The position numbers were made by a program, and so were the translations under genes. Shown piece by piece: positions 1 to 27,424 of a DNA stretch of 27,424 nt. Location: IMG/VR virus record IMGVR_UViG_2913147268_000004. One strand, 5' to 3'. Numbering within the stretch: position 1 is the first letter of the stretch; every line of letters begins with the position of its first letter. Source of the DNA: a virus (taxonomy: Duplodnaviria > Heunggongvirae > Uroviricota > Caudoviricetes). The notes beneath the pieces were generated by a model that searched no databases, had not been told where the DNA came from, and saw nothing but the letters and a program-made list of their open reading frames with translations.

Positions 1-91
1 CACAACATCCGAGGACAGCAACACCCGATACTTTTTCCTGGCTTCCAGCAACGGGGTTTCTTCCTCCGTTGCATATACAGCTCACCTTTTT

Positions 92-385
92 TCACCCACG
101 ATTAACCAACAGCCAGACCAGCAGACACGCCACCACCGGCACAGCAAAATCCATCAGGCTTGCCACATCCCAAGCTCGCGGATCAAAACCGCCCCACCAC
201 GGCATATTCATTCGCTTGCCATGCCCGAACATTTCAATCCAGCGATATTCTGCCTGGGTATGTTCACGCGCAATGAAGAACGTACAACCGGCTATCGCTC
301 CGTAAGCCCAGTTTCCGGTAAAAAGACCAACCAGTATCTGCGCAGCCACAGCACAAAGTGCATGAAGTAAGGGGCTTATATCCAT
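92..385 (-). CDS. hypothetical small membrane protein (two predicted transmembrane helices)
   Basis: 97-codon ORF; SD-like AAGGAGG 5-7 nt upstream of the ATG at 385; starts 12 nt after the stop of the preceding minus-strand gene; two long hydrophobic segments in the translation. No family recognised. Confidence 0.5.
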   Translation of the reverse strand: MDISPLLHALCAVAAQILVGLFTGNWAYGAIAGCTFFIAREHTQAEYRWIEMFGHGKRMNMPWWGGFDPRAWDVASLMDFAVPVVACLLVWLLVNRG

Positions 386-397
386 TATTTCCTCCTT

Positions 398-676
398 TCA
401 GCTCCATTCCCGAAGCGGTGTTTCCAGCTCCACGACATAATCAGAGAATACAGAAACATCAAACAAGTCATCAAGAATGCGAATGTTGACAAAATAACCG
501 TCATTCCGGACACAGACAGGTTCTCCCTCTTCTGTTACCCCTGTTTCTGTGTAGGTGAAACCAATTTCATCGACTAACAGTTTATTCTGGAGGTCTTCAT
601 CCTCCTCCCAGTCAAGAGATGACAGGAAGGATTTAAACTCTCTGTTACCAGGAAATTTCAAAGTTAAATCTTTCAT
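398..676 (-). CDS. hypothetical acidic 92-aa protein downstream of side tail fiber gene
   Basis: ATG at 676 overlaps the stf stop (ATGA overlap, translational coupling); translation is D/E-rich; not similar to lambda Tfa as I recall it. Confidence 0.5.
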   Translation of the reverse strand: MKDLTLKFPGNREFKSFLSSLDWEEDEDLQNKLLVDEIGFTYTETGVTEEGEPVCVRNDGYFVNIRILDDLFDVSVFSDYVVELETPLREWS

Positions 677-2694
677 ACTGCCTCCTTGATTTGCCTGTCA
701 TTTAATTCTTTAAACCAGACTCTGAAATTTCTGATGTGTCCAAACAAATGACGCGTTCCTGCTGCGGTCTGCCCACCAAACCGGTACGATGTTGCTGTAA
801 CTCCAAATATTTTACCATTAAGGTTTGTTGTATAATTACCATTGCATATTGCATTTACTGATAAATCAGATTTAGCTCTCACACCCACAATGAACCTTTC
901 TCCATCTGAGGCAATTTGTGGCTGAACCATTCCTACGTTGGCGCTTATCTTTCCTGTTGCAACAAACCCCAGCGATAAATAATTATCATCAATACTGTGC
1001 CCTCCAACATCAAATATCCTTGGCGCAACATTGGGCGGTGTACTCCAGTTCCTGCTTACTTCGCACAATACCGTAAAAGGCCGTGTTGACAGGTTATTCT
1101 GCGATGGGATAGTAACTACATCACTTGCGCGTGTTGTTGGCATTGTAGTTACAATAAATGACGATGCCGTATTGCCCAGTTCAATTTGCGGCGTCGTCAT
1201 GGTTAATGTTGAGTCATCATAGAATGTCTCATTACTTATTTTATTTGTCATATAAAAAGCACAGTTAACGGTATCAATGTCCGTATTAGCTGTATAAGTG
1301 GCCTCATAGTAGGTCCACTCGCCCTGTTGTTCAGCTTTGGCTGTTATAAGGGATGTATTACCGCTTACTGTTGCGATCCGGGTATCCAGATCAAGATAAG
1401 AGTCAGCAGAGAAGGTATCTGTTCCACCAATAATAACTGAAACTCTTAACCTGCATCGTGCTTTAGCGCCTTTAACCCGGCACGAAAAAGTGAAACATTC
1501 ACCACTTGCCAGCGGGAATCTGTCTGCTGCAACCACACCATGCACAGTATAGCCACCTGTTGTTCCCACTATACTTTCCGTGGGTGTCACCGTGGCATAA
1601 TTGAACCCCTGTTTATCAGTGCCAAATGTTTTATTCAGTGCGGAATGAACAGTCCATGAGTCTGGTTTATTTGAGTTCCTCAGATAATTTGTCCTCTGTC
1701 CTTCAATCAATAAGCCATCGCGCTCAAATCGCGGTTCGTCAACTTCAGCAAGCTTGAGTTGGCCGGACTTATTAATATACGTTGCTGTTGAAGCACGTTT
1801 AAACTTAACAATCTTGTCGCCTGGCATTGTTATTTCATCGTCACCAATAACTATCTTTTTATAAGATGGCGAAAAACCCGTAATCATATCCAGTGAATCG
1901 TTAAACGGTATCCACACATCAGGCAGCGGCGGCACTATATTCGCACAGGGCTCTGCAGTCACTTCCGCTGCGGCTTCTGCGCGGTCTGCCGCCTTTTCAG
2001 CTCGTGTCGCTGCCGACAGAGCCTCATCCTTTTTCTGCCCGGCCTTTGTTGCGTCTGCTGCGGCCTCCCGCGCTTTTGTGGTGGCGACTCCGGCATTTTC
2101 AGCGGCTGACTCTGCATTACGGCGGGAAGCCTCTTCACTGTCTGCGGAGGCTTCTTCTGACGCACGGGCATTTGTCTCTGAACGTTCTGCCGCTGTTGCT
2201 GCGTTTTGTGCGGCTGTTTTTGAAGAAGCTGCCGCTTTCGCGCTGTTACCTGCATTCGTCTCTGATGTTTTCGCCGCGTTCCTGGACGATGCCGCTGCTG
2301 TTTCTGATTTCTTTGCTGCCGCTGCGCTCTGAGAGGCGGCTTCAGCGTTGCGTGCCGCCTCTTCCACCATCTTTTCAAAACGATACAGTGCCTCCGGACA
2401 AACATCATCTTCTGTTGCAGCGCCCAGAAAATCATTCAATGTCCCCGGCTTAGAATCCTCATACACGGTGATGGTCCCGGCATGTGAAGGCGGAAAACCT
2501 TCAACCAGCAGGGCGACGCTGTACTGGCCATACTCAACATCCATGCTGTAACGTCCGGCTTCATCCGGATTTTCTGAGGCCACCGTGTTCACCACAACTG
2601 TGGTGCTGTTACGTTTTGCTTTGAGCTGAATGGTGCAGTTCTGTATCGGTTTTCCTGCACCGTCTTTCAGCACACCTGAAATCTGTACTGCCAT
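673..2694 (-). CDS. stf: side tail fiber protein, Stf family (lambda-like N-terminus, divergent C-terminal domain)
   Basis: N-terminal ~95 aa (MAVQISGVLKDGAGKPIQNCTIQLKA...) match my recollection of lambda Stf; followed by Ala/Ser/Glu-rich repeat region typical of Stf shafts; likely start is ATG at 2694 with GGAG SD (track ORF begins at GTG 2700). Confidence 0.85.
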   Translation of the reverse strand: MAVQISGVLKDGAGKPIQNCTIQLKAKRNSTTVVVNTVASENPDEAGRYSMDVEYGQYSVALLVEGFPPSHAGTITVYEDSKPGTLNDFLGAATEDDVCPEALYRFEKMVEEAARNAEAASQSAAAAKKSETAAASSRNAAKTSETNAGNSAKAAASSKTAAQNAATAAERSETNARASEEASADSEEASRRNAESAAENAGVATTKAREAAADATKAGQKKDEALSAATRAEKAADRAEAAAEVTAEPCANIVPPLPDVWIPFNDSLDMITGFSPSYKKIVIGDDEITMPGDKIVKFKRASTATYINKSGQLKLAEVDEPRFERDGLLIEGQRTNYLRNSNKPDSWTVHSALNKTFGTDKQGFNYATVTPTESIVGTTGGYTVHGVVAADRFPLASGECFTFSCRVKGAKARCRLRVSVIIGGTDTFSADSYLDLDTRIATVSGNTSLITAKAEQQGEWTYYEATYTANTDIDTVNCAFYMTNKISNETFYDDSTLTMTTPQIELGNTASSFIVTTMPTTRASDVVTIPSQNNLSTRPFTVLCEVSRNWSTPPNVAPRIFDVGGHSIDDNYLSLGFVATGKISANVGMVQPQIASDGERFIVGVRAKSDLSVNAICNGNYTTNLNGKIFGVTATSYRFGGQTAAGTRHLFGHIRNFRVWFKELNDRQIKEAV

Positions 2695-2752
2695 ATTCAC
2701 TCCACAAATAAAAAAGGCACCATTTCTGGTGCCCGAATTTGGGTTTTAAAAT

Positions 2753-4030
2753 TCAACTGATACTGATGCCGGCTGTTGATTTCTTCATCACGACAACAAG
2801 AAGGTCGCTGATACTGGTCGTTGGCGTCCAGTTATTTGCACCATATGAAGAAACATTGAAAGTCAGGGTGACATGGCCGTGTCCGGCAGGCATATCAATG
2901 ACTGATGAAAATACCCTGCTGACATCCGTCGCGGGTTGCTGAAAGATTTCCTGTCCGTTCTTCAGCACCTGCAGCTTACAGGTTGAATACCAGTATGACT
3001 GTTGGTTGTTGCTGTTGAAGTTTTCATGCTTACCACCGCGAAACAGAACGGGGGGGACGACTATCTGACGGTCAAAAGCCTGGTCATCGTACACAGTGAC
3101 CGTTATTGTACCGCTGGCATAACTGCCATTTCTCGGAAAGGCTTTTCCCACCGTTTTGACAATATCACCTTCAATCTGGTTAGCTGACAGTTTTCCCAGA
3201 ATCCGACAGTTCTGGTTAATCGTGACATTATTGAGCGTCCCGGAGTTCGCATTCACGTTACCGCTGATATCCGCATTTCTCGCAGAAAGTCGACCATCAG
3301 GTGTCAGTGAAAACGTTGGGGGATTGCCACCGCTGGTAATGGTGGGAGCCGTCAGATATTTCAGGAACACTTCGTTCATGAATATCTGATCGCCCTGCCC
3401 AACAAACATCGGCTTTGTATTGCCATTCGCAGGATTAATCATCGCAATCCTGTCCGCCGCCAGCAGCACCTGACTCTGCATACCGTCAGGGGTATTCTCA
3501 ATACCGGCACCAATACCCGCGATATAAAGGCGTCCGTCCTGCATCTGCTGCAGCTTCACAGCCCACATGCTGTTCAGGTTATTATTTGTATCAACCTGAA
3601 CCTTCTGTATCTGCTGGATCGCTGCACTCTGGTCTTCCAGTTTCTTATTGACGGTCTGCGTGATTTCATTGCTGACATCCGTAATGGACGTCCTGATTTC
3701 AGCCAGGTCAGGCGCAAGCTGACCGTTATCAATCTGCGTCCACAACTCCTGAGCCAGATGGGTTTTCCCTATCTCTCCTTTGAAAAAATCCAGATAGCCG
3801 GATGCATCATCACTCGGCTGGCCAACAGCCTCCACAAATGCCGATTTGCCAACGGTGTTCACACTGCGAATGTAAAAATAATAATCATGGCCCGGTTTGA
3901 TATTGATACTGGCGGCTATCCAGTACAGCGCCGTACCAAGATAACGCGCGCTGGCTTCAACCTGCCTGATATCCGCAATCCGCTTTTCCGAGAACCAGAA
4001 CTCAAACTGTAGGAACGTAGTACTCACCAA
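2753..4030 (-). pseudogene. J: 3' remnant of host-specificity/central tail fiber gene J (C-terminal ~425 codons only)
   Basis: Translation (…[62 protein letters not shown]…) matches the C-terminal third of lambda gpJ as I recall it; no ATG start (track start is TTG); 5' two-thirds of J absent; frame is continuous upstream to the esterase stop codon. Confidence 0.8.
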
Positions 4031-4063
4031 TAAATAAGCGTCAATACGGTGCTCCGTTGACGC

Positions 4064-5095
4064 TTACGGGTTTTGTTGTTGGGGAGCTGTTTTTATAGGC
4101 GCTCCCAGGTTTTTAGTAAACCACTCAACGACTCTGTTTATAATAATTGGCTGATACCATGTCTTATCGCCATGCTCGGCCCCTTCTACCAGCACGTACT
4201 CAGCGTTATCACCGTTCTTCTTCAACATCCTGAATAGTTTGGCGCTTTGCTCAGGTGAAACCAGAGTGTCTTTGCTACCATGCATAATAAGAAATGGGGG
4301 TTTTACTCCTTTCATATGTCCGATTGGACTGGCGTTTAGCGCTTTTTCTTTTGACGCTGTGATGGGGGCTCCCGCAAAATTTCTGAATGCAGGGCCATTG
4401 ATCATTAAGGCTTCGGTTACGGCAGGAGAGCGATGAACCTCCTGCACTGATTCAGGGAACCCCTCGCCAATATTCAACAAGTCAGAAATCCCATAAAGTG
4501 TGGCAACTGCCTGAACATCTGAGGATTGCTGAAGAAAGTCACCTTTATCAAAGGTTTTGTCACCATTTGTAGTTCCCATCATCTGGGCAAGCCATCCACC
4601 GGCAGAGTCACCCAGAACTCCGATTCTTTGAGGATCAATCCCATAATTGCTGGCATGCTCTCTCAGGTAACGTATTGCAGCTTTTCCATCCTCAACTGGT
4701 GCTGGAAATGTATCAGGAATTGTTCTGTATTCTACAGCGGCCACAACAAAACCAGCTTCTGCCAGAGCCATTCTCATTTCAATAAATTTGTCATGTTCAG
4801 AAGACATGAATCCGCCGCCGGGATAATAAATAATGGCTGGTTTTAAATCATTTGTTCGCGGGACAAGAACTGACATGTGAAGCTGTCTGACAGAACGAGT
4901 TCCTTTTATCTGGGAATAAACAACATCACCAATGAGATCGACCTGGTTTCTGGTCGGTGAAACACTAATGATATCTGCACCCGGGGTGTAACCAGGAAGA
5001 TTAGTCTGGACAGGTGTTGCACAACTCCCGACCGACATGGCCATTGACATACCATACAATAGTGTTGCAGATGATAATATCTTGTTAATTTTCAT
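4064..5095 (-). CDS. alpha/beta-hydrolase fold esterase/lipase (HSL-like), predicted lipoprotein
   Basis: 343-aa ORF; N-terminal signal peptide with lipobox-like SVGSC; YPGGGF oxyanion-hole-like motif and GDSAGG nucleophile motif; C-terminal HGSKD and AEHGD segments consistent with catalytic Asp/His. Family assignment by motif only. Confidence 0.75.
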   Translation of the reverse strand: MKINKILSSATLLYGMSMAMSVGSCATPVQTNLPGYTPGADIISVSPTRNQVDLIGDVVYSQIKGTRSVRQLHMSVLVPRTNDLKPAIIYYPGGGFMSSEHDKFIEMRMALAEAGFVVAAVEYRTIPDTFPAPVEDGKAAIRYLREHASNYGIDPQRIGVLGDSAGGWLAQMMGTTNGDKTFDKGDFLQQSSDVQAVATLYGISDLLNIGEGFPESVQEVHRSPAVTEALMINGPAFRNFAGAPITASKEKALNASPIGHMKGVKPPFLIMHGSKDTLVSPEQSAKLFRMLKKNGDNAEYVLVEGAEHGDKTWYQPIIINRVVEWFTKNLGAPIKTAPQQQNP

Positions 5096-5542
5096 GTTTT
5101 ACATGCCTTGACTTATCGGATGAAATTCTCTTACTAAATTTAACGGCAGTTTAATAGCCGTACAACTCGTGGTAGCCAGGGAAATATCCCAGTCGTGGTT
5201 AAGGTTGTACTTGACGGCTATTATTTCAACAATGCTTAAAGTGAGAGCTTAAGGTTATGCGTATGTTTTACAGTCCGAGTAGATTCTGACCAATAGCTTC
5301 TTTGTATAATTCTGTCAGAAATAAATCTTGGCTTGCATGAAGTTTGAGACCTTATCTTGTTTGATTATGAATAATCAATTCGCCATAATTGTATCACCGG
5401 AGCCTGAACAACTCCGGTGACTTCTGCGCTAAACGGGGACGTTTATGCGCACACACAATCCAAACTCTCTTCTCCCTTCACAGATGCAGAAATGCACCTG
5501 CGTTTTTTTGCATCTAGCGTCTGACCTCTGTGGAGGTGAAGC

Positions 5543-5998
5543 GTGAACCTACCACAAGATGGCATCAAACTGCATCGCGGTAACTTCATCGCTATCGGCC
5601 AGCAGATCCAGCCTTATCTGGAGAACGGAAAATGCTTTCGCATGGTGCTTAAACCGTGGCGTGAGAAACGCAGTCTTTCCCAGAATGCACTCAGCCACAT
5701 GTGGTACAGCGAAATCAGTGAATACCTCATCAGCAGGGGGAAATCGTTCGCTACCGCAGCATGGGTAAAAGATGCTCTCAAACACACATACCTCGGTTAT
5801 GAAACCAAGGACCTGGTTGATGTCGTAACCGGCGAAATCACTACTATCCAGTCGTTACGCCATACCTCCGATCTCGATACCGGAGAGATGTATGTCTTCC
5901 TGTGTAAGGTTGAAGCCTGGGCGGTGAATATTGGCTGCCACCTGACTATTCCGCAGAGCTGCGAGTTCCAGCTGCTGCGCGACAAGCAGGAGGCGTAA
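5543..5998 (+). CDS. ybcN: NinB/YbcN-family recombination protein (lambdoid nin region)
   Basis: 151-aa ORF from GTG 5543 with GGAGGTG SD; RSLSQN motif and length match my recollection of NinB/YbcN; syntenic with ninE-ybcO-rusA downstream. Confidence 0.6.
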
Positions 5999-6168
5999 TG
6001 GCTACACCGCTTATTCGTGTCATGAACGGACACATCTACAGAGTACCAAATCGTCGTAAGCGTAAGCCTGAGCTGAAACCATCCGAAATACCAACACTGC
6101 TCGGATATACCGCCAGCCTGGTTGATAAAAAATGGTTGCGACTGGCAGCAAGGAGGAATCATGGCTGA
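5998..6168 (+). CDS. ninE: NinE-like small protein
   Basis: 56-codon ORF not in the supplied track (below length cutoff); start overlaps ninB stop; pattern KRKP…YTA.L.D..WLR..AR resembles NinE as I recall it; synteny. Confidence 0.5.
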   Translation: MATPLIRVMNGHIYRVPNRRKRKPELKPSEIPTLLGYTASLVDKKWLRLAARRNHG

Positions 6169-6451
6169 CTTGAGAAAAGCAGCGCGTGGTCGGGAATGCC
6201 AGGTAAGAATCCCTGGCGTATGTAATGGCAATCCTGAAACGTCAGTACTGGCACATATCCGGCTGGCTGGATTGTGCGGTACCGGTATCAAACCGCCAGA
6301 CCTGATTGCCACCATTGCATGTTCTGCCTGCCACGACGAAATCGACCGTCGCACGCATTTTGTTGACGCTGGATATGCAAAAGAATGTGCGCTGGAAGGT
6401 ATGGCGAGAACACAGGTTATCTGGCTGAAAGAGGGGGTAATTAAGGCGTGA
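6161..6451 (+). CDS. ybcO: YbcO-like (DUF1364) putative Cys-cluster nuclease of nin region
   Basis: 96-aa ORF from ATG 6161 preceded by AGGAGG (6151-6156); Cys cluster CQVRIPGVC…CSACHDE; length and sequence match my recollection of DLP12 YbcO. The track ORF starts at an upstream in-frame ATG at 6122. Confidence 0.65.
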
Positions 6452-6810
6452 ATACTTACTGCATCACACTACCCTGGCCGCCGAGCAATAATCGCTATTA
6501 CCGCCATAATCGCGGACGCACGCATATCAGCGCAGAGGGGCAGGCATACCGCGATAATGTCGCCCGAATCATTAAAAACGCAATGCTGGATATCGGCCTG
6601 GCTATTCCTGTGAAAATCAGCATTGAGTGCCACATGCCGGATCGCCGTCGCCGTGACCTTGATAATCTGCAAAAGGCCGCTTTTGACGCACTCACCAAAG
6701 CAGGTTTCTGGCTGGATGATGCTCAGGTCGTTGATTACCGCGTTGTGAAGATGCCCGTTACCAAAGGTGGGAAGCTGGAGCTGACTATCACTGAACTGGG
6801 AGATGAATGA
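6448..6810 (+). CDS. rusA: Holliday junction resolvase RusA
   Basis: 120-aa translation near-identical to E. coli RusA as I recall it ([25 protein letters not shown]…). Confidence 0.9.
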
Positions 6811-6947
6811 TGTTTGAGTCTTATATGGCAGAACGTCTTCGCCGCCGCTGGGTGCGCCTGCGCTTATATCGTTTTCCTAGTTCTGTTTTGACCGATTACC
6901 GGATACTGAAGAATTACGCCAAAACACTGAAAGGAGCTGCCGCATGA
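6807..6947 (+). CDS. ylcG: YlcG-like small protein
   Basis: 46-codon ORF ([46 protein letters not shown]) overlapping rusA stop and the Q-position gene start; resembles DLP12 YlcG as I recall it. Confidence 0.55.
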
Positions 6948-7633
6948 ATACCCAATATTTACAGTATGTCCGCGAGCAACTCATTGTGGCTACCGCTGAT
7001 TTGAGCGGAGCAACGAAAGGACAGCTTGAAGCCTGGCTGGAGCATGCACAATTTGATACTGGTACATACAAACGAAAGAAGCCGCGCATTCTGGATGAGG
7101 TAACTGGCAGGATGATTACGCTGGATAATCCGCCGATTTCCGGTAAGCAGTTGTACGCAAAAGGTTCATCCATTGCACTGGTCAGCCAGGTTGAGTTCTC
7201 AACCTCGTCATGGCGCCGCGCGGTTCTGTCTCTCGAAGAACATCAGAAAGCGTGGTTGCTGTGGAGTTACAGCGAAAGTGTTCGCTGGGAACATCAGGTC
7301 ACCATAACGCAGTGGGCATGGAGCGAGTTTAAGACTCTGTTGGGTACCAGGAAAATTGCAGGTAAAACACTGGAACGTTTGAAGAAGTTGATCTGGCTGG
7401 CGGCACAGGATGTGAAGAACGAGCTGGCAGGGCGTAAGACCTATGAATACCAGGAGCTGGCATCACTGGTGGGAGTGACATCAAAAAACTGGTCTGAGAC
7501 ATTTACTGAACGCTGGGTTGCAATGAAGCACATTTTTCTACAGCTTGATAGCCAAGCTTTATTGCTTTTAACGAAAACACGTTCAAAACAAAAGACCATA
7601 TTTTCACAGCAAGATATTGCAAAACTGGATTAA
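6944..7633 (+). CDS. putative late-gene regulator at the Q (antiterminator) position; family not recognised
   Basis: 229-aa ORF with AAGGAG SD; sits between rusA/ylcG and the lysis cassette where lambdoid phages encode Q; translation has no cysteines, so it is not a lambda-Q-type zinc-finger protein. Confidence 0.45.
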   Translation: MNTQYLQYVREQLIVATADLSGATKGQLEAWLEHAQFDTGTYKRKKPRILDEVTGRMITLDNPPISGKQLYAKGSSIALVSQVEFSTSSWRRAVLSLEEHQKAWLLWSYSESVRWEHQVTITQWAWSEFKTLLGTRKIAGKTLERLKKLIWLAAQDVKNELAGRKTYEYQELASLVGVTSKNWSETFTERWVAMKHIFLQLDSQALLLLTKTRSKQKTIFSQQDIAKLD

Positions 7634-7645
7634 AAATCATATATT
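7617..7645 (+). promoter_or_regulatory. candidate late promoter (pR'-like): TTGCAA-N17-TATATT
   Basis: -35 TTGCAA (7617-7622), 17-bp spacer, -10 TATATT (7640-7645), overlapping the 3' end of the Q-position gene as pR' does in lambdoid phages. Sequence pattern only. Confidence 0.4.
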
Positions 7646-7700
7646 TTATGTAAATCTGATATTTTGCCAATGTTGTACGCACTGGCAGTAATCCAAATTC

Positions 7701-7735
7701 AAGCCCGAGGTTTAAAGCCTTGGGCTTTTCTGTTT
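7701..7735 (+). terminator. candidate intrinsic terminator (hairpin with G-U pair, then T-rich tract)
   Basis: AAGCCCGAGG…CCTTGGGCTT inverted repeat followed by TTTTCTGTTTCTG, about 55 nt downstream of the candidate late promoter. Confidence 0.35.
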
Positions 7736-7814
7736 CTGAACGGTGAGTAGCCTTCCAACCTACCCCAGCCAGGGTGTCTTCAGCTGTTGAGTTGATATTG
7801 CTTAACCCTCTGTT

Positions 7815-7840
7815 GCCAGCTACATGCTGGCTTTTTTATT
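7815..7840 (+). terminator. candidate intrinsic terminator (tR'-like)
   Basis: GCCAGC-tacat-GCTGGC perfect 6-bp stem followed by TTTTTTATT; about 190 nt downstream of the candidate late promoter, similar to the length of the lambda 6S transcript. Confidence 0.5.
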
Positions 7841-7954
7841 CCAGGCTTGCGGGGAGCATCAACTCCGTGCTTTGTCGTTAAATTACCCCGTGAGCCTGAT
7901 TTCTGACATTTAACGTCCCGGCCTTTTGTCGGCGGCGAAACATTGGCTATTCAT

Positions 7955-8260
7955 ATGCACGAAAAAGAGAGCCTTGCCGGAGCGTTCTGGCTCGTTTTGC
8001 TGATCATCGCAGGTTGGGGCGGTCTGGTCCGCTACCTGATAGATGTGAAGCAGAGTAAAGCAACGTGGAGTTGGATAAATGCTCTGGCTCAAATAGTGGT
8101 ATCAGGATTCACCGGTGTTATTGGTGGCCTGATCAGCATCGAAAGTGGATTCAGTATTTACATGATTCTCGCGACAGCGGGGATTAGTGGTGCGATGGGT
8201 TCGGTTGCACTGACGTACTTCTGGGAACGACTGACAGGGGTGAAAAATGCAAAATCTTAA
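7955..8260 (+). CDS. holin (three predicted TM segments)
   Basis: First gene of the lysis cassette, overlapping the R start; three hydrophobic segments; possible dual start (TTG at 7943 and ATG at 7955, MAIHM…). Confidence 0.7.
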   Translation: MHEKESLAGAFWLVLLIIAGWGGLVRYLIDVKQSKATWSWINALAQIVVSGFTGVIGGLISIESGFSIYMILATAGISGAMGSVALTYFWERLTGVKNAKS

Positions 8261-8723
8261 TCCTCAGCGTAAAGCCTTCCTCGATATGTTGGCGTGGTCA
8301 GAAGGAACGGATAACGGGCGACAACCGACACGTAACCACGGTTATGATGTTATTGTTGGCGGCGAACTGTTTACTGATTACTCCGATCACCCTCGCAAAC
8401 TTGTCACGCTACACCCCAAACTCAAATCAACAGCCGCCGGACGTTATCAGCTTCTTTCACGCTGGTGGGATGCTTACCGTAAACAGCTTGGTTTGAAAGA
8501 CTTCTCCCCCAAAAGCCAGGACGCAGTGGCATTACAGCAGATTAAAGAGCGTGGTGCTTTACCGATGATTGATCGCGGTGATATCCGTCAGGCAATCGAC
8601 CGTTGCAGCAATATCTGGGCTTCACTGCCGGGCGCTGGTTATGGTCAGTTCGAGCATAAGGCTGACAGCCTGATTGCAAAATTCAAAGAAGCTGGCGGAA
8701 CGCTCAGAGAGAGTGAGGTATGA
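8247..8723 (+). CDS. R: endolysin R (lambda-type lytic transglycosylase)
   Basis: 158-aa translation near-identical to lambda gpR as I recall it (…[48 protein letters not shown]…). Confidence 0.95.
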
Positions 8724-9181
8724 GCAGAATAACCGCGATTATCTCCGCTCTGGTTATCTGCGTCATCGTCTGCCTTTCATGGGCGGTTAATCATTACCGC
8801 GATAACGCGATTACCTACAAAGCCCAGCGCGACAAAAATGCCAGAGAACTGACGCTGGCGAACGCGGCAATTACTGACATACAGATGCGTCAGCGTGATG
8901 TTGCTGCGCTCGATGCAAAATACACGAAGGAGTTAGCTGATGCGAAAGCTGAAAATGATGCTCTGCGTGATGATGTTGCCGCTGGTCGTCGTCGGTTGCA
9001 CATCAAAGCAGTCTGTCAGTCAGTGCGTGAAGCCACCACCGCCTCCGGCGTGGATAATGCAGCCTCCCCCCGACTGGCAGACACCGCTGAACGGGATTAT
9101 TTCACCCTCAGAGAGAGGCTGATCACTATGCAAAAACAACTGGAAGGAACCCAGAAGTATATTAATGAGCAGTGCAGATAG
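8720..9181 (+). CDS. Rz: i-spanin Rz
   Basis: 153-aa translation near-identical to lambda Rz as I recall it; N-terminal TM segment. Confidence 0.95.
8940..9122 (+). CDS. Rz1: o-spanin Rz1 (lipoprotein, embedded in Rz in +1 frame)
   Basis: 60-aa ORF wholly inside Rz; lipobox VVGC; Pro-rich; matches lambda Rz1 as I recall it. Confidence 0.9.
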
Positions 9182-9212
9182 AGCTGCCCATATCGATGGG
9201 CAACTCATGCAA

Positions 9213-9506
9213 TTATTGTGAGCAATACACACGCGCTTCCAGCGGAGTATAAATGCCTAAAGTAATAAAACCGAGCAATCCATTTACGAATGTTTGCTGG
9301 GTTTCTGTTTTAACAACATTTTCTGCACCACCACAAATTTTTGCTGCATCGACAGTTTTCTTCTGCCCAATTCCCGAAACGAAGAAATGATGGGTGATGG
9401 TTTCCTTTGGTGTTACTGCTGTAGGTTTGTTTCCAACAGTAAACGTCTGTTGAGCACATCCTGTAATAAGCATTGCCAGAGCGGCAGAAAACAACATTTT
9501 TTTCAT
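9213..9506 (-). CDS. bor: Bor lipoprotein (serum-resistance-associated lysogenic conversion protein)
   Basis: 97-aa translation from ATG at 9506 (MKKMLFSAALAMLITGCAQQTFTV…) near-identical to lambda Bor as I recall it. The track ORF extends 16 codons upstream. Confidence 0.9.
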   Translation of the reverse strand: MKKMLFSAALAMLITGCAQQTFTVGNKPTAVTPKETITHHFFVSGIGQKKTVDAAKICGGAENVVKTETQQTFVNGLLGFITLGIYTPLEARVYCSQ

Positions 9507-9986
9507 CTTATTATCCTGCATTGTTAAAAACGGCAGAATCCTATGTGACAACAATTAAACGATAGTTAAATGGATTGATGAAAATTAAAACTACACAGGT
9601 GGGCTCAGACTATTGGAGGAAGTTGGGGACACTCAGAATCCTGTGGAATGAAATAAACCGGTCTATCCGTCCATTACCCTTTTAGCTGCGCTGTATCGTC
9701 GCCGTATTCCCGCATTAACCATGACCGTAGCCCGACGGGGAATTCCTTCTGCGTGAGTGTGCGGGAATAATTAAAAACGATGCACACCGGGTTTTTACCG
9801 CGTTAATGATTCGCGGGTTTATCCCGGTGCGATGGTGGAAGAAACAGGAAGCTGTATTACAGAAAGTGCTACTACTGTATCCCGATGCGATGTATGTAAT
9901 GTGAGTCAGATAATGGCACAGGATGTGGTGATGTGGCAGTCTGGAACACAGGATATATTGTCAGAATAAGACCCGTAGGAATAAAA

Positions 9987-10313
9987 ATGAAAAGACGCCT
10001 TTTACTACTTTTTCTGTTATCTGTCCTGGCAGTGGGATGCTCGCAGCAAAAAGCTGATGAGCCCCGGCAATTAGTGACGGTGTATCCACGATATCCGGAA
10101 TATGCTGCAGCAAATTATATCAAGGGGCTGGTTGAGGTTAAGTTCGATATTGGTGCTGATGGGACTGTGACACGGATCGTTTTTCTCCGCTCAGAGCCTC
10201 ATAATTTGTTTCGTGATGAAGTGGTGAAGGCCATGGCGAAATGGCGATTTGAAAAGAATCGCCCCTGTCAGGGAGTGAAGAGACAATTTATCTTTACGCC
10301 GTCACGTCCTTGA
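9987..10313 (+). CDS. lipoprotein consisting of a TonB C-terminal-like domain
   Basis: ATG 9987 with AGGA SD 6 nt upstream; signal peptide plus lipobox LAVGC; mature region aligns by eye to the E. coli TonB C-terminal domain as I recall it (YP…VEVKFDIGADGTV…NLFRDEVVKAMAKWRFE versus TonB …VKVKFDVTPDGRV…NMFEREVKNAMRRWRYE). Confidence 0.65.
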   Translation: MKRRLLLLFLLSVLAVGCSQQKADEPRQLVTVYPRYPEYAAANYIKGLVEVKFDIGADGTVTRIVFLRSEPHNLFRDEVVKAMAKWRFEKNRPCQGVKRQFIFTPSRP

Positions 10314-10405
10314 TGCTTCCAGGTAGAGAGGGGCTGGAAGCAGGAGAAAAATGAAAGAGCCAGCGGTTATATTTTTGTCATGGCTGACGAGGAATGATGG
10401 AAGAA

Positions 10406-10428
10406 GGCGTTGTATGCCACACAACGCC
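10406..10428. terminator. candidate terminator hairpin downstream of the TonB-C lipoprotein gene
   Basis: GGCGTTGT-atgccac-ACAACGCC perfect 8-bp stem followed on the + strand by a T-rich tract; it overlaps the 3' end of a weak minus-strand ORF, so assignment is uncertain. Confidence 0.3.
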
Positions 10429-10676
10429 TCACTGTTCATTTCTTCTTTTTCTCTGGTGGAACCCGATGAATAAGAGTTGCACTGGTTTCCGATGAGATGG
10501 CGATATACTCGGGCAAAGTATGCTGGCAGTTTTCCAACTGGTCAAAAATACCTGCTCTCGTCTGTTGCAATGCCTGCAGCATGCGGCGGCAATGCGCCTT
10601 GCTTTTACTAACCATCTTTCCTTCCTCTATCAGTCGCTGCGTGAACTCATCATGGAATACCAGGTAAATGCGGATG

Positions 10677-10928
10677 TTATCGGTTTTGGCTACGCAGCAT
10701 AGTACAAAACGGACAGGTGCATCCCGGGACGGGGGAGGCGTCACATGTCCCTGTGATGGTTGTTCCGGGTAATGTACTGTGTGGGGCATAAAAATGTCCG
10801 ATAATTTTACTTTCTACCGCAGTTAGTTGATTCGTTGGTCCTGGTAGCACATTGGGCGAGGATTTAAATGCCAGGCAACTGAAGGATGATGTCGCAAGGG
10901 AGATAGCGAGAATATTTCTGATTTTCAT
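10677..10928 (-). CDS. hypothetical small secreted Cys-rich protein (83 aa)
   Basis: ATG at 10928 preceded by AGAGG SD; predicted Sec signal peptide (MKIRNILAISLATSSFSCLA); rare-codon-rich; overlaps ORFs in other frames, so coding status is uncertain. Confidence 0.35.
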   Translation of the reverse strand: MKIRNILAISLATSSFSCLAFKSSPNVLPGPTNQLTAVESKIIGHFYAPHSTLPGTTITGTCDASPVPGCTCPFCTMLRSQNR

Positions 10929-11076
10929 TTGATGATGCCTCTGTGTGAAATGACGGTAAACGACGCACTTGTGCCGGCACATAATAGCAAGCACCATAAT
11001 AGATCAGATTCGATTCTTGCTGTAAGTGATAATTATTCTCGTTTTCGGGTCCTTTCCGTCGATCCAACAGGTTACG

Positions 11077-11088
11077 GGGCGGCGACCT
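11077..11088 (+). other. cos: cosN cohesive-end site (GGGCGGCGACCT), with cosB (Nu1/IHF binding region) downstream to about 11265
   Basis: Exact lambda 12-nt cohesive end sequence; flanking sequence (…CGGGTTTTCGCTATTTATGAAAATTTTCCGGTTTAAGGCG…) matches the lambda left end as I recall it; immediately upstream of nu1. Confidence 0.85.
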
Positions 11089-11265
11089 CGCGGGTTTTCG
11101 CTATTTATGAAAATTTTCCGGTTTAAGGCGTTTCCGTTCTTCTTCGCCGTAACTTAATGTTTTTATTTAAAACACTCCCTGAAAAGAAAGGAAACGACAG
11201 GTGCTGAAAACGGGCTTTTTGGCCTCTGTCGTTTCCTTTCTCTGTTTTTGTCCGTGGAATGAACA

Positions 11266-11785
11266 ATGGAAGTCAACAAAAAGCAGCTGGCTGACATTTT
11301 CGGCGCGAGTATCCGTACTATTCAGAACTGGCAGGAGCAGGGAATGCCCGTTCTGCGAGGCGGTGGGAAGGGTAATGAGGTGCTTTATGACTCTGCCGAC
11401 GTCATAAAATGGTATGCCGAAAGGGATGCTGAAATTGAGAACGAAAAGCTGCGCCGGGAGGTTGAAGAACTGCGACAGGCCAGCGAGACAGATCTCCAGC
11501 CAGGGACTATTGAGTACGAACGCCATCGACTTACGCGTGCGCAGGCCGACGCACAGGAGCTGAAAAATGCCAGAGACTCCGCTGAAGTGGTGGAAACCGC
11601 ATTCTGTACTTTCGTGCTGTCGCGGATCGCAGGTGAAATTGCCAGTATTCTCGACGGGATCCCCCTGTCGGTGCAGCGGCGTTTTCCGGAACTGGAAAAC
11701 CGACATGTTGATTTCCTGAAACGGGATATCATCAAAGCCATGAACAAAGCAGCCGCGCTGGATGAACTGATACCGGGGTTGCTGA

Positions 11786-11811
<26 letters not shown>
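11266..11811 (+). CDS. nu1: terminase small subunit Nu1
   Basis: 181-aa translation near-identical to lambda Nu1 as I recall it. Confidence 0.95.
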
Positions 11812-15492
<3,681 letters not shown>

Positions 15493-25950: not shown

Positions 25951-26521
25951 AAACGGGGGCTGAAGCCATCCGGGCGCTGGCCACACAGCTCCCGGCGTTT
26001 CGTCAGAAACTGAGCGACGGCTGGTATCAGGTNNNNNNNNNNNNNNNNNNNNNNNNNNNNNNNNNNNNNNNNNNNNNNNNNNNACAGGTGAAACGGAATT
26101 ATCAGCCCGTCTTAATGAACCGCTGGCAAATGGTGCTGTGATCCATATCGTGCCGCGTCTGGCAGGAGCCAAAAGTGGCGGTGTGTTTCAGGCTGTGCTG
26201 GGGGCGGCTGTTATGGCGGTTGCTATATGGATGCCGGGGGTAGGAATTATGGCGAGTAATCTGCTGTTTTCTCTCGGTGCCAGTATGACGCTTGGCGGTG
26301 TTGCACAGATGCTGGCCCCTAAACCCAGAACCCCCCGCACACAGACAACGGATAACGGCAAACAGAACACCTATTTTTCTTCACTGGATAATATGGTTGC
26401 CCAGGGCAATGTTCTGCCCGTTCTGTACGGTGAAATGCGCGTGGGATCACGTGTGGTATCTCAGGAGATCAGCACAGCAGATGAAGGTGATGGTGGTCAG
26501 GTTGTGGTGATTGGTCGCTGA
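25848..26521 (+). CDS. I: tail assembly protein I (interrupted by assembly gap)
   Basis: N-terminal part (25848-26032) and C-terminal part (26084-26521) both match lambda gpI as I recall it; the two parts are in different frames across the N-run, consistent with an arbitrary gap length. Confidence 0.8.
26033..26083. other. assembly gap (51 N) inside gene I
   Basis: Run of N characters in the sequence. Confidence 1.
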
Positions 26522-26581: not shown

Positions 26582-27424
26582 ATGGGTAAAGGCAGCAGTA
26601 AGGGGCATACCCCGCGCGAAGCGAAGGACAACCTGAAGTCCACGCAGCTGCTGAGTGTGATCGATGCCATCAGCGAAGGGCCGGTTGAAGGTCCGGTGGA
26701 TGGATTAAAAAGCGTGCTGCTGAACAGTACGCCGGTGCTGGACAGTGAGGGGAATACCAATATATCCGGCGTCACGGTGGTGTTCCGGGCCGGTGAGCAG
26801 GAGCAGTCACCGCCGGAGGGATTTGAATCCTCCGGCTCCGAGACGGTGCTGGGTACGGAAGTGAAATATGACACGCCGATCACCCGGACCATCACGTCGG
26901 CAAACATCGACCGTCTGCGCTTTACCTTCGGTGTACAGGCACTGGTGGAAACCACCTCAAAGGGAGACAGGAATCCGTCGGAAGTTCGCCTGCTGGTTCA
27001 GATACAGCGTAACGGTGGCTGGGTGACGGAAAAAGACATCACCATTAAGGGCAAAACCACCTCGCAGTANNNNNNNNNNNNNNNNNNNNNNNNNNNNNNN
27101 NNNNNNNNNNNNNNNNNNNNNNNNNNNNNNNNNNNNNNNNNNNATAACCTGCCGCCGCGCCCGTTTAATATCCGGATGCGCAGGATGACGCCGGACAGCA
27201 CCACAGACCAGCTGCTGAACAAAACGCTCTGGTCGTCATACACCGAAATCATCGATGTGAAACAGTGCTACCCGAACACGGCACTGGTTGGCGTGCAGGT
27301 GGACTCGGAGCAGTTCGGCAGCCAGCAGGTGAGCCGTAATTATCATCTTCGCGGGCGCATTCTGCAGGTGCCGTCGAACTATAACCCGCAGACGCGGCAA
27401 TACAGTTCAAGGCGCACTTCGTAA
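26582..27424 (+). CDS. J: host specificity / central tail fiber protein J, 5' part (continues beyond window; contains assembly gap)
   Basis: Translation from MGKGSSKGHTPREAKDNLKSTQLLSVIDAISEGP… matches the lambda gpJ N-terminus as I recall it; open at the window end. Confidence 0.9.
   Translation: MGKGSSKGHTPREAKDNLKSTQLLSVIDAISEGPVEGPVDGLKSVLLNSTPVLDSEGNTNISGVTVVFRAGEQEQSPPEGFESSGSETVLGTEVKYDTPITRTITSANIDRLRFTFGVQALVETTSKGDRNPSEVRLLVQIQRNGGWVTEKDITIKGKTTSQXXXXXXXXXXXXXXXXXXXXXXXXXXNLPPRPFNIRMRRMTPDSTTDQLLNKTLWSSYTEIIDVKQCYPNTALVGVQVDSEQFGSQQVSRNYHLRGRILQVPSNYNPQTRQYSSRRTS
27070..27143. other. assembly gap (74 N) inside gene J
   Basis: Run of N characters in the sequence. Confidence 1.

Follow-up and report, generated by a model that had tools for sequence, protein, structure and literature searches.

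Insertion sequences of the IS66 family typically end in GTAAGCG and duplicate 8 bp of target DNA. In a viral (Caudoviricetes) record of 27,424 nucleotides, analysed here over its whole length and called the window, a remnant of one such element, ISEc23, lies between an esterase gene and part of the tail gene J. As in other ISEc23 scars, the right end is 100% identical to the full copies, all of which, when examined, have the GTAAGCG terminus and an 8-bp duplication, and a gene has been truncated with a stop codon supplied by the element, which has hopped locally within one prophage. The scar described here differs in that 56 bp are left and an internal position of the element is bluntly joined to J; since such a join is not made by transposase, a secondary deletion or an illegitimate join is needed. 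The J fragment next to the remnant (J') resembles the gpJ pseudogenes of defective Escherichia coli lambdoid prophages in keeping the C-terminal Ig_J_second, tail-tip and receptor-binding domains, in being followed by stf, and in being without the N-terminal part, start codon and promoter. In contrast to those pseudogenes, J was broken by neither a simple deletion nor a simple IS insertion; its N-terminal fragment lies elsewhere, inverted and broken at about nt 770.

The esterase gene is comparable to the nin-region morons of DLP12/lambda-like phages in lying beside ybcN, antisense to the early-right operon, and a terminator-like hairpin can be read from the sequence after the native esterase stop; the corresponding slot of K-12 DLP12 is presumably occupied by ybcL/ybcM. 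Its product, like the Bor/Iss morons, is a predicted lipoprotein, but whereas those are small and structural, it would be an enzyme (alpha/beta-hydrolase). It shares the profile, GDSAGG and GGG motifs of BD-FAE/Abhydrolase_3 (HSL-like) carbohydrate and short-chain esterases (6nkf, 6mly, 6xyc, and 6tkx), from which it differs in having a putative lipoprotein signal peptide, in being phage-borne, and in reading PGGG in place of the HSL 'HGGG'. The NanS-p O-acetyl-sialic-acid esterases of Stx prophages are likewise prophage cargo and lysogen-borne esterases, perhaps also similar in acting on acetylated sugars, but they belong to another fold family (SGNH/DUF303-type), are encoded in the late region, and are not lipoproteins.

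We interpret the region as a scar of prophage decay, neither a gene fusion nor a moron inserted into J, with a probability of roughly 85%. The following features were located in the window.

673..2700, minus strand: side tail fibre gene (stf, phage_tail_N domain), following J' in native order and collinear with strains AZ146 and AZ 186
2715..2734, minus strand: intrinsic-terminator-like hairpin and T-run just past the J stop, phage-native
2753..4011, minus strand: J' pseudogene, the 1259 nt at the C-terminal end of J (tail-tip/host-specificity gene), 100% identical to J of the AZ146 prophage
4011..4012: junction at which J nt 2225 meets, without homology, a site inside ISEc23, 56 bp short of its right terminus
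4012..4067, plus strand: ISEc23 (IS66 family) right-end (IRR) remnant, 56 bp, 100% identity to full copies
4035..4066: perfect 10-bp inverted repeat (TAAGCGTCAA / TTGACGCTTA, 12-nt spacer), arms at 4035-4044 and 4057-4066
4064..5095, minus strand: esterase gene, IS-clipped allele, 343 aa versus 347 aa in the native form
4068..4075: one copy of the 8-bp target-site duplication GGGTTTTG, from ISEc23 insertion into the esterase 3' end
5543..5998, plus strand: ybcN (NinB-like), native divergent neighbour of the esterase, from a profile search and relatives
26582..27405, plus strand: N-terminal ~770 nt of J, on the strand opposite to J' and 22.5 kb from it
27406..27424, plus strand: 19 nt not derived from J which, with the preceding G, correspond to antisense sequence from close to the 5' end of a T6SS vgrG gene

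Native context of the esterase gene

Although the esterase had been regarded as an unusual prophage cargo, it is a common accessory gene (moron) of E. coli DLP12/lambda-like phages: its product matches phrog_3341 'esterase' (E 1.8e-129), and eight lambdoid phage records carry it (99.1% identical). The phage linkage of its homologs that the original prediction proposed to look for in tail regions does exist, but in the early/nin region. The native site, read in relatives and in phage 4A7, is beside ybcN/ninB, about 22 kb from J and antisense to the early-right operon; in 4A7 the gene is flanked by ybcN and a recombinase gene, and P follows beyond. In many E. coli prophages the esterase is convergent with an inverse-autotransporter gene, and a shared terminator-like hairpin can be read between the two. 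Of 5,426 complete E. coli genomes, 443 have an uninterrupted esterase 3' end that faces the inverse-autotransporter (invasin-like) gene and 68 have the IS-clipped allele, and in none of these 68 does J sequence adjoin the esterase.

The right-hand neighbours of the esterase in the window (ybcN, ninE, rusA, and Q) are the native ones, ybcN being the start of a nin/Q/lysis/late block that reaches the right end of the window. Positions 4012-13600 are collinear with strain AZ146 at 100% identity, and in that strain a full ISEc23 abuts the same 343-aa esterase allele, whose protein (WP_029700859.1) is identical to the one encoded here. In the closest relative, this prophage type is located at icd. 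One esterase contig (L009) is without called genes past the esterase, but only through an N-run that masks the IS there. Neither literature searches on ISEc23 and ST131 prophages nor those on phages 4A7/4C10 turned up anything about this esterase.

The ISEc23 remnant and its junction with J'

Bases 4012-4067, which belong to neither J nor the esterase gene, constitute the final 56 bp of ISEc23. Full 2532-bp copies in three records (L001, L002, and L003) served as reference (100% identity), and thousands of records hold ISEc23 copies matching the 56 bp. Read on the minus strand from 4067, the remnant begins with GTAAGCGTCAACGGAGCACCGTAT (GTAAGCG terminus), which aligns with the IRL GTAAGCGTAAACTGACCGCCGTAT of the full copies, and the stop codon (TAA) of the ISEc23 transposase corresponds to 4035-4037 on the plus strand. 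The esterase stop codon, TAA at 4064-4066 (minus strand, 4066-4064), falls within the terminal GTAA, and thus it is the IS terminus that supplies the stop. In AZ146, GGGTTTTG is present on both flanks of the full ISEc23, and removal of the element and one GGGTTTTG copy restores exactly the native sequence of strain TO148, in which the esterase (347 aa) ends in ...QQQNPNANL. Other ISEc23 copies are flanked by the 8-bp target duplications AATATGAG and TCTGTATC, and independent ISEc23 insertions with 8-bp duplications were observed in TO148, within the invasin gene, and in AZ 186, within J. The window contains the remnant only: neither a complete ISEc23 (tnpA, tnpB, and DDE transposase) nor a second IS end was found in it, and an IS-end-like site with one mismatch at 6056-6067 was taken as a chance match.

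An inverted repeat had been described as a perfect 9-bp repeat straddling the boundary between the esterase and J. The repeat is present, but its arms are 10 bp long and it lies entirely within the ISEc23 remnant, its outer arm holding the esterase stop codon. It is a native sub-terminal part of the ISEc23 right end and occurs in every copy examined. In the esterase mRNA the repeat folds as a hairpin followed by UUUAUU, with a minimum free energy of -19.5 kcal/mol that is not exceptional relative to shuffled sequences (z -1.6).

A recount agrees with the original prediction that the esterase and J' open reading frames share one frame and are separated by a single TAA, with no other stop between them. 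Homology to J does not begin after 11 codons, as had been suggested: DNA identity starts at 4011, corresponding to J nt 2225 (second position of codon 742), 18 codons past the esterase stop, and the 18-codon stretch in between is antisense IS sequence. When the window was compared with both intact J and intact IS, no microhomology was seen at 4011/4012. Considering that two frames coincide with a chance of 1/3 and that 18 random codons contain no stop with a chance of about 0.4, the joint probability is about 0.14; therefore, the in-frame arrangement is no more than chance would give, and the shared frame is a coincidence. Related genomes, which the prediction had named as a check, do not share the J'/IS junction: it was detected in none of the 5,426 complete E. 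coli genomes, and no match was found in GTDB species-representative genomes, JGI metagenomes, or IMG/VR. An IS end alone can thus yield both a tidy in-frame arrangement and an inverted repeat at an apparent junction.

J' corresponds to J nt 2225-3483 of 3483 (residues 743-1160), i.e., the C-terminal 36% only, and contains the Pfam domains Ig_J_second (9e-29), Phage_Tail_Tip (8e-32), and Ig_GpJ_C (4e-38). The downstream open reading frame as called spans 2753-4030 on the minus strand, the TTG at 4030 being merely the first mechanical start codon; an exact look-up of the J' product with either a TTG or a GTG start returned nothing on record, and a simple scan of the minus strand upstream of J' found no sigma-70-like promoter. 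The window has no full-length J open reading frame (about 1160 aa) that includes the N-terminal tip-assembly domains, and nt ~771-2224 of J are missing from it. J' is a pseudogene that lacks its own promoter and start codon context, and the prophage is defective, being unable to make the tail tip. Positions 1-4011 of the window are 100% identical to the segment from sitD to J (nt 2225) in the AZ146 prophage, in the opposite relative orientation.

The N-terminal fragment of J, which contains a run of 74 N (27070-27143), breaks at about nt 770, where it is joined to the vgrG fragment; the last bases of the window are the TAA that closes this chimeric J/vgrG open reading frame. This join is a second private non-homologous junction, with no match in IMG/VR. 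A simple deletion was rejected as its source, as there is no vgrG less than 40 kb from the prophage and the essential genes lolCDE and holB lie in between.

Origin of the arrangement

The history begins with the esterase as an accessory gene near ybcN/ninB, antisense to the early-right operon, the position demonstrated in relatives. In one lineage, ISEc23 (2532 bp) then entered the last codons of the esterase with duplication of GGGTTTTG, as the AZ146 and TO148 sequences demonstrate, an event that cost the protein its last four residues (NANL) and brought in the TAA stop and the 10-bp inverted repeat. Finally, in the genome that the window comes from, a block with one end 56 bp within the IS right end and the other in J would have been inverted against the remainder of the prophage, so that the esterase, the 56 bp of IS, J nt 2225-3483, and stf follow one another in a single orientation; the resulting junction is observed directly, whereas the path to it is conjectural. 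The likeliest path may have been insertion of a second, inverted ISEc23 into J, inversion by recombination between the two copies, and a deletion that began within the IS and ended in J; alternatively, a direct illegitimate inversion might have occurred. In strain AZ 186, ISEc23 has hopped into this very J gene. Origin from that particular insertion was ruled out, as the IS there lies at the window equivalent of 3604-3611 and not at 4011, and a junction made directly by transposase was ruled out as well, the break being internal to the IS. It is highly improbable that a break 56 bp inside the right end marks an unrecognised processing site of IS66-family elements. Several points weigh against the decay history. 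The join lies 56 bp inside the IS and not where transposase junctions fall, so that at least one extra, non-transposase step is needed; we infer the inversion from orientation, and its reciprocal junction would lie beyond the window. In addition, the J/vgrG join and two N-runs in the same J region allow the possibility of a partial assembly artefact.

The last point leads to the alternative that both the J'/IS and the J/vgrG joins are products of a chimeric read or of faulty scaffolding in the draft assembly of a strain with an ordinary prophage, for which ST131 would be a fitting candidate background. Both junctions are private in the collections searched and have 0-1 nt of microhomology, and the N-runs in the J/I region, 51 and 74 nt long versus 19 and 20 nt in relatives, resemble estimated scaffold gaps. 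Moreover, a biological origin of the join between J (~770) and vgrG needs a second long-range rearrangement, because of the distance to the nearest vgrG and the essential genes in between. However, De Bruijn or overlap misjoins normally use shared sequence, which neither join has, both sides of the J'/IS join come from one prophage at 100% identity in a geometry that fits IS-mediated inversion and deletion, and ISEc23 demonstrably hops into this J gene. We regard an assembly chimera as a possible but unlikely source of the joins.

Two readings proposed earlier take the adjacency of the esterase and J' at face value. According to one, a moron entered a decaying J gene and took the place of the 5' two-thirds, the esterase stop codon marking the breakpoint. 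J' is indeed truncated, the esterase is indeed a moron, and the two are adjacent in the same orientation in the window, but the esterase was not inserted into J: its widespread native place is the nin region and its right-hand neighbours are native, an IS remnant sits between it and J', the N-terminus of J persists on the opposite strand at a distance of 22 kb, and the break falls at 4011/4012 in the remnant, not at the stop codon. This origin is scarcely credible. According to the other, readthrough or a one-codon change would yield a fusion of the esterase to the C-terminal receptor-binding part of J, for which one might cite the two frames separated by one stop and the hairpin at and right after that stop codon. 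The in-frame arrangement occurs in no other sequence of the collections searched and thus bears no sign of selection; the stop is UAA followed by G, and UAA, which both release factors recognise, is the tightest of the E. coli stop codons; the sole hairpin is the generic IS inverted repeat with its unexceptional z score; and the linker of 18 antisense IS codons would be open and in frame by chance at the frequency given above. Functional recoding is the least credible explanation that we considered.

Under the preferred reading of prophage decay, J' should be annotated as a pseudogene, 4012-4067 as an ISEc23 remnant, the prophage as defective, and the esterase gene as a common phage gene of the nin region, present here in its IS-clipped allele. 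Outside correct annotation, the importance of the arrangement is small.

The predicted lipoprotein esterase

The sole point of wider interest is this common phage-borne, predicted lipoprotein esterase of E. coli. As the original prediction had it, the open reading frame at 4064-5095 (minus strand) encodes a lipoprotein-type, HSL-like esterase: in a Pfam profile search the 343-aa product matched BD-FAE (PF20434; 153.9 bits, E 5.5e-45, cut-off 26.8) and Abhydrolase_3 (PF07859; 81.3 bits, cut-off 25), and it also matches solved esterases, best among them PDB 6nkf (E 1.6e-37). A motif search identified GDSAGG as a candidate nucleophile elbow (GDSAG 162-166, Ser164), and a GGG oxyanion-hole motif is present; Asp276 (SKD 274-276) and His308 (HGD 308-310), placed by position only, are candidate triad partners of Ser164. 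The N-terminus has a putative lipoprotein-type signal peptide, in which MKINKILSSATLLYGMSMAMSVGS followed by C25 matches, by eye, the PROSITE PS51257-type lipobox pattern. A simple scan of the minus strand upstream of the gene found no sigma-70-like promoter. The IS-clipped esterase is probably still a working lipoprotein serine esterase that is expressed in the lysogen. More speculatively, and with considerable doubt, it might be a lysogenic-conversion factor, i.e., a lipoprotein carbohydrate O-acetyl or short-chain acyl esterase remodelling the cell surface or host glycans. If so, it could influence superinfection, colonisation, or nutrient access; its adjacency to J' has no role in this proposal. 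Iss/Bor, also a predicted lipoprotein, occurs in the same prophage as the esterase.

Sequence between the esterase and J frames

Five features of the window bear on the relation between the esterase and the tail-tip gene J.

4064-5095, minus strand: esterase ORF, 343 aa
2753-4030, minus strand: next downstream ORF, in the same frame as the esterase (5095-4030 = 1065 = 3 x 355)
4012-4067: final 56 bp of ISEc23 (an IS66-family insertion sequence), by identity to the IS of strain Ecol_AZ146
4035-4037, plus strand: ISEc23 transposase stop TAA
26582-27405, plus strand: J N-terminal part, after the tail genes in native order

Pfam searches assign the 343-aa esterase to BD-FAE (PF20434; E 5.5e-45) and Abhydrolase_3 (E 1.1e-22), and the translated downstream frame to Ig_J_second, Phage_Tail_Tip, and Ig_GpJ_C, the C-terminal domains of lambda-type tail-tip protein J. 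The two frames are separated by a lone TAA (4064-4066), and a perfect 10-bp inverted repeat has its arms at 4035-4044 and 4057-4066, so ORF coordinates, translation, and a repeat check bear out the shared frame, the single stop, and the repeat noticed originally. The position given for the junction, at the esterase stop codon, and the role given to the repeat, as spanning it, did not hold. The tally of 11 sense codons had ended at the first mechanical TTG start; 18 codons (17 of antisense IS sequence and 1 hybrid) separate the TAA from the first whole J codon.

The region was not found in one piece in any of the complete Escherichia coli genomes compared, in which the match divides at 4011/4012, placing the break there. 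Window 4012-13600 is collinear with AZ146 at 100% identity, and in AZ146 a complete ISEc23, with tnpA, tnpB, and DDE transposase genes, directly adjoins the identical 343-aa esterase allele (WP_029700859.1). On the minus strand, starting from 4067, the IS terminus reads GTAAGCGTCAACGG..., which pairs with the left end GTAAGCGTAAACTG.... The 2532-bp element of AZ146 lies between 8-bp direct repeats (GGGTTTTG), one copy of which is kept at window 4068-4075, and its in silico removal together with one repeat copy gives exactly the sequence of strain TO148, in which the esterase has 347 aa (ending ...QQQNPNANL before its stop), is followed by a hairpin-plus-T-run terminator, and is convergent with a large inverse-autotransporter (invasin-like) gene, whose 3' end it faces. 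Comparison with the intact IS and this empty site shows that the esterase TAA is that of the IS terminus GTAA and that the inverted repeat is ordinary ISEc23 sub-terminal sequence, both being unconnected with J. Of 5,426 complete E. coli genomes, 68 carry the IS-clipped allele and 443 have an uninterrupted invasin/esterase junction. A further IS66-type terminus with one mismatch (GTAAGCGTAAGC, window 6056-6067, plus strand, within the ninE/ybcO region) is probably a chance match, since at least two matches were obtained in 1 of 100 shuffles.

Native place of the esterase

In the icd-integrated prophage, presumptively of ST131 type, the gene order runs int ... O, P, invasin (rightward), ISEc23, esterase (leftward), ybcN (rightward), ninE, ybcO, rusA, ylcG, and Q, followed by holin, lysozyme, Rz, iss, terminase ... 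tail ... J, stf, two small genes, and sitDCBA. Eight lambdoid phage records (two of 4A7, Lambda_4C10, D2, 1W, 3W, Perceval, and PhiR47_2) have the esterase at 99.1% identity, and phage PHB10 has a counterpart at 73%. Its neighbours in 4A7 are ybcN on one side and a recombinase gene on the other, P lying further along; this is the nin-region slot in which DLP12-like phages classically carry morons. Considering these records, this placement, and a match to phrog_3341 'esterase' (E 1.8e-129), the gene is a recognised and common phage accessory gene linked to the early rather than the tail region; it is thus a moron, as had been proposed, but not an unusual prophage cargo.

The nearest solved structure is a metagenomic lipase (6nkf, E 1.6e-37), and further solved relatives are carbohydrate or acetyl-xylan esterases (6mly, 6xyc, and 6tkx). 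A motif search detected a GGG oxyanion motif and GDSAGG (Ser164), with Asp276 and His308 as candidates only, and by eye the N-terminus is consistent with a lipoprotein pattern (Cys25).

Other cargo was also observed. A 1421-aa inverse autotransporter (1199-5464 of the relative locus L001; IAT_beta and many Big_1/Invasin_D3 repeats) is nin-region cargo convergent with the esterase; it lies upstream of the esterase in relatives and is missing from the window, and 4A7 carries the esterase without it. After the lysis genes, the window has genes for an Iss/Bor serum-resistance lipoprotein (~9213-9554, minus strand) and a TonB-C-domain protein (9933-10313, plus strand), both called from annotation of the identical AZ146 sequence.

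Breaks in J and their origin

Window 1-4011 matches the AZ146 prophage at 100% identity over the stretch that begins just past sitD, crosses stf, and ends at J nt 2225, in an orientation relative to the 4012-27424 block opposite to that in AZ146. The AZ146 J gene has 3483 nt, of which nt 2225-3483 are kept in this fragment, the break falling at codon 742 position 2; aligned with intact J and intact IS, the join at 4011/4012 is blunt, with zero shared bases. On the opposite strand, within the ORF at 26582-27424, J identity ends at 27405 (J nt ~770); beyond it, the closing 19-20 nt of the window are identical to antisense sequence close to the 5' end of a T6SS vgrG gene adjoining tssH. Judged by its sequence, the J/vgrG join is a second private, non-homologous junction. 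No vgrG was found within 40 kb of the AZ146 prophage, and the essential genes holB and lolCDE lie in between; a simple deletion is therefore rejected for this join. The window ends exactly at the TAA of the chimeric J/vgrG ORF and starts one base past the sitD stop, as if its edges had been cut at gene boundaries by a provirus caller.

Direct comparison shows a moron in the nin region and then an ISEc23 insertion with target-site duplication (TSD). From the orientation, a third step would have inverted one segment, running from IS position -56 into J, with respect to the J C-terminus, stf, and sit. The likeliest route starts from a second ISEc23 copy, inverted and lying in J on the 5' side of nt 2225. 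Homologous recombination between the copies would then have produced the inversion, giving esterase-IRR...IRL-J(C-term), and a subsequent deletion reaching from the IS interior into J would account exactly for a 56-bp remnant fused to nt 2225; alternatively, the inversion may have been a one-step illegitimate event. For both routes, the reciprocal junction falls outside the window. ISEc23 copies inserted independently, each with its own TSD, are found in the TO148 invasin gene (AATATGAG) and in J of strain AZ 186 (TCTGTATC), the latter inverted relative to the esterase-site copy. Three independent insertions in one prophage type in different strains (esterase 3' end, invasin gene, and J) suggest repeated local hopping. 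The copies in three relative loci (L001 and L002, 5525-8056; L003, 6525-9056) each have their own 8-bp TSD and differ from one another by 0-4 nt.

It is less likely than not, but quite possible, that part of this architecture is an assembly chimera. Two blunt private joins within one gene would fit such an origin, as would the gap-like runs of 51 N (26033-26083, in a tail-assembly gene by the relatives' annotation) and 74 N (27070-27143, in the J N-terminal region), which may be scaffold gaps or masking and do not preserve sequence length, the otherwise identical AZ146 prophage having 19 and 20 nt there. However, assemblers misjoin through shared sequence, of which these joins have none, and the geometry matches the product of an IS-mediated inversion. 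Whether chimera or real rearrangement, the biological conclusion on a fusion is unchanged. An esterase-J(C-term) fusion or stop readthrough has no support and is not credible: the junction was absent from the 5,426 complete E. coli genomes, GTDB representatives, JGI metagenomes, and IMG/VR; the stop is UAA, the least leaky in E. coli; the J fragment showed no promoter-like site of its own in a simple scan and lacks a credible start codon; and an in-frame (1/3), stop-free (~0.4 over 18 codons) arrangement is expected by chance at ~0.14. The IS repeat itself forms the hairpin seen at the stop; this hairpin is of no unusual stability (-19.5 kcal/mol, z -1.6) and with its UUUAUU tail might, if anything, cause weak transcription termination. 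Thus, of the original prediction, a decaying J (split between opposite strands) and a moron esterase stand, but not insertion into J, because the esterase is native to the nin region and an ISEc23 remnant separates it from the J fragment. What we observe is ordinary IS-driven decay of a defective prophage, the type of which is located at icd in the closest relative.

Beside the J fragment, the side tail fibre (673-2700, minus strand) is a single unbroken 675-aa ORF with a low-complexity, Ala/Glu/Ser-rich middle; AZ146 and AZ 186 carry an identical sequence, for which RefSeq has two partial pseudogenes (tail fibre N-terminal domain and 'head spike fiber' domain).
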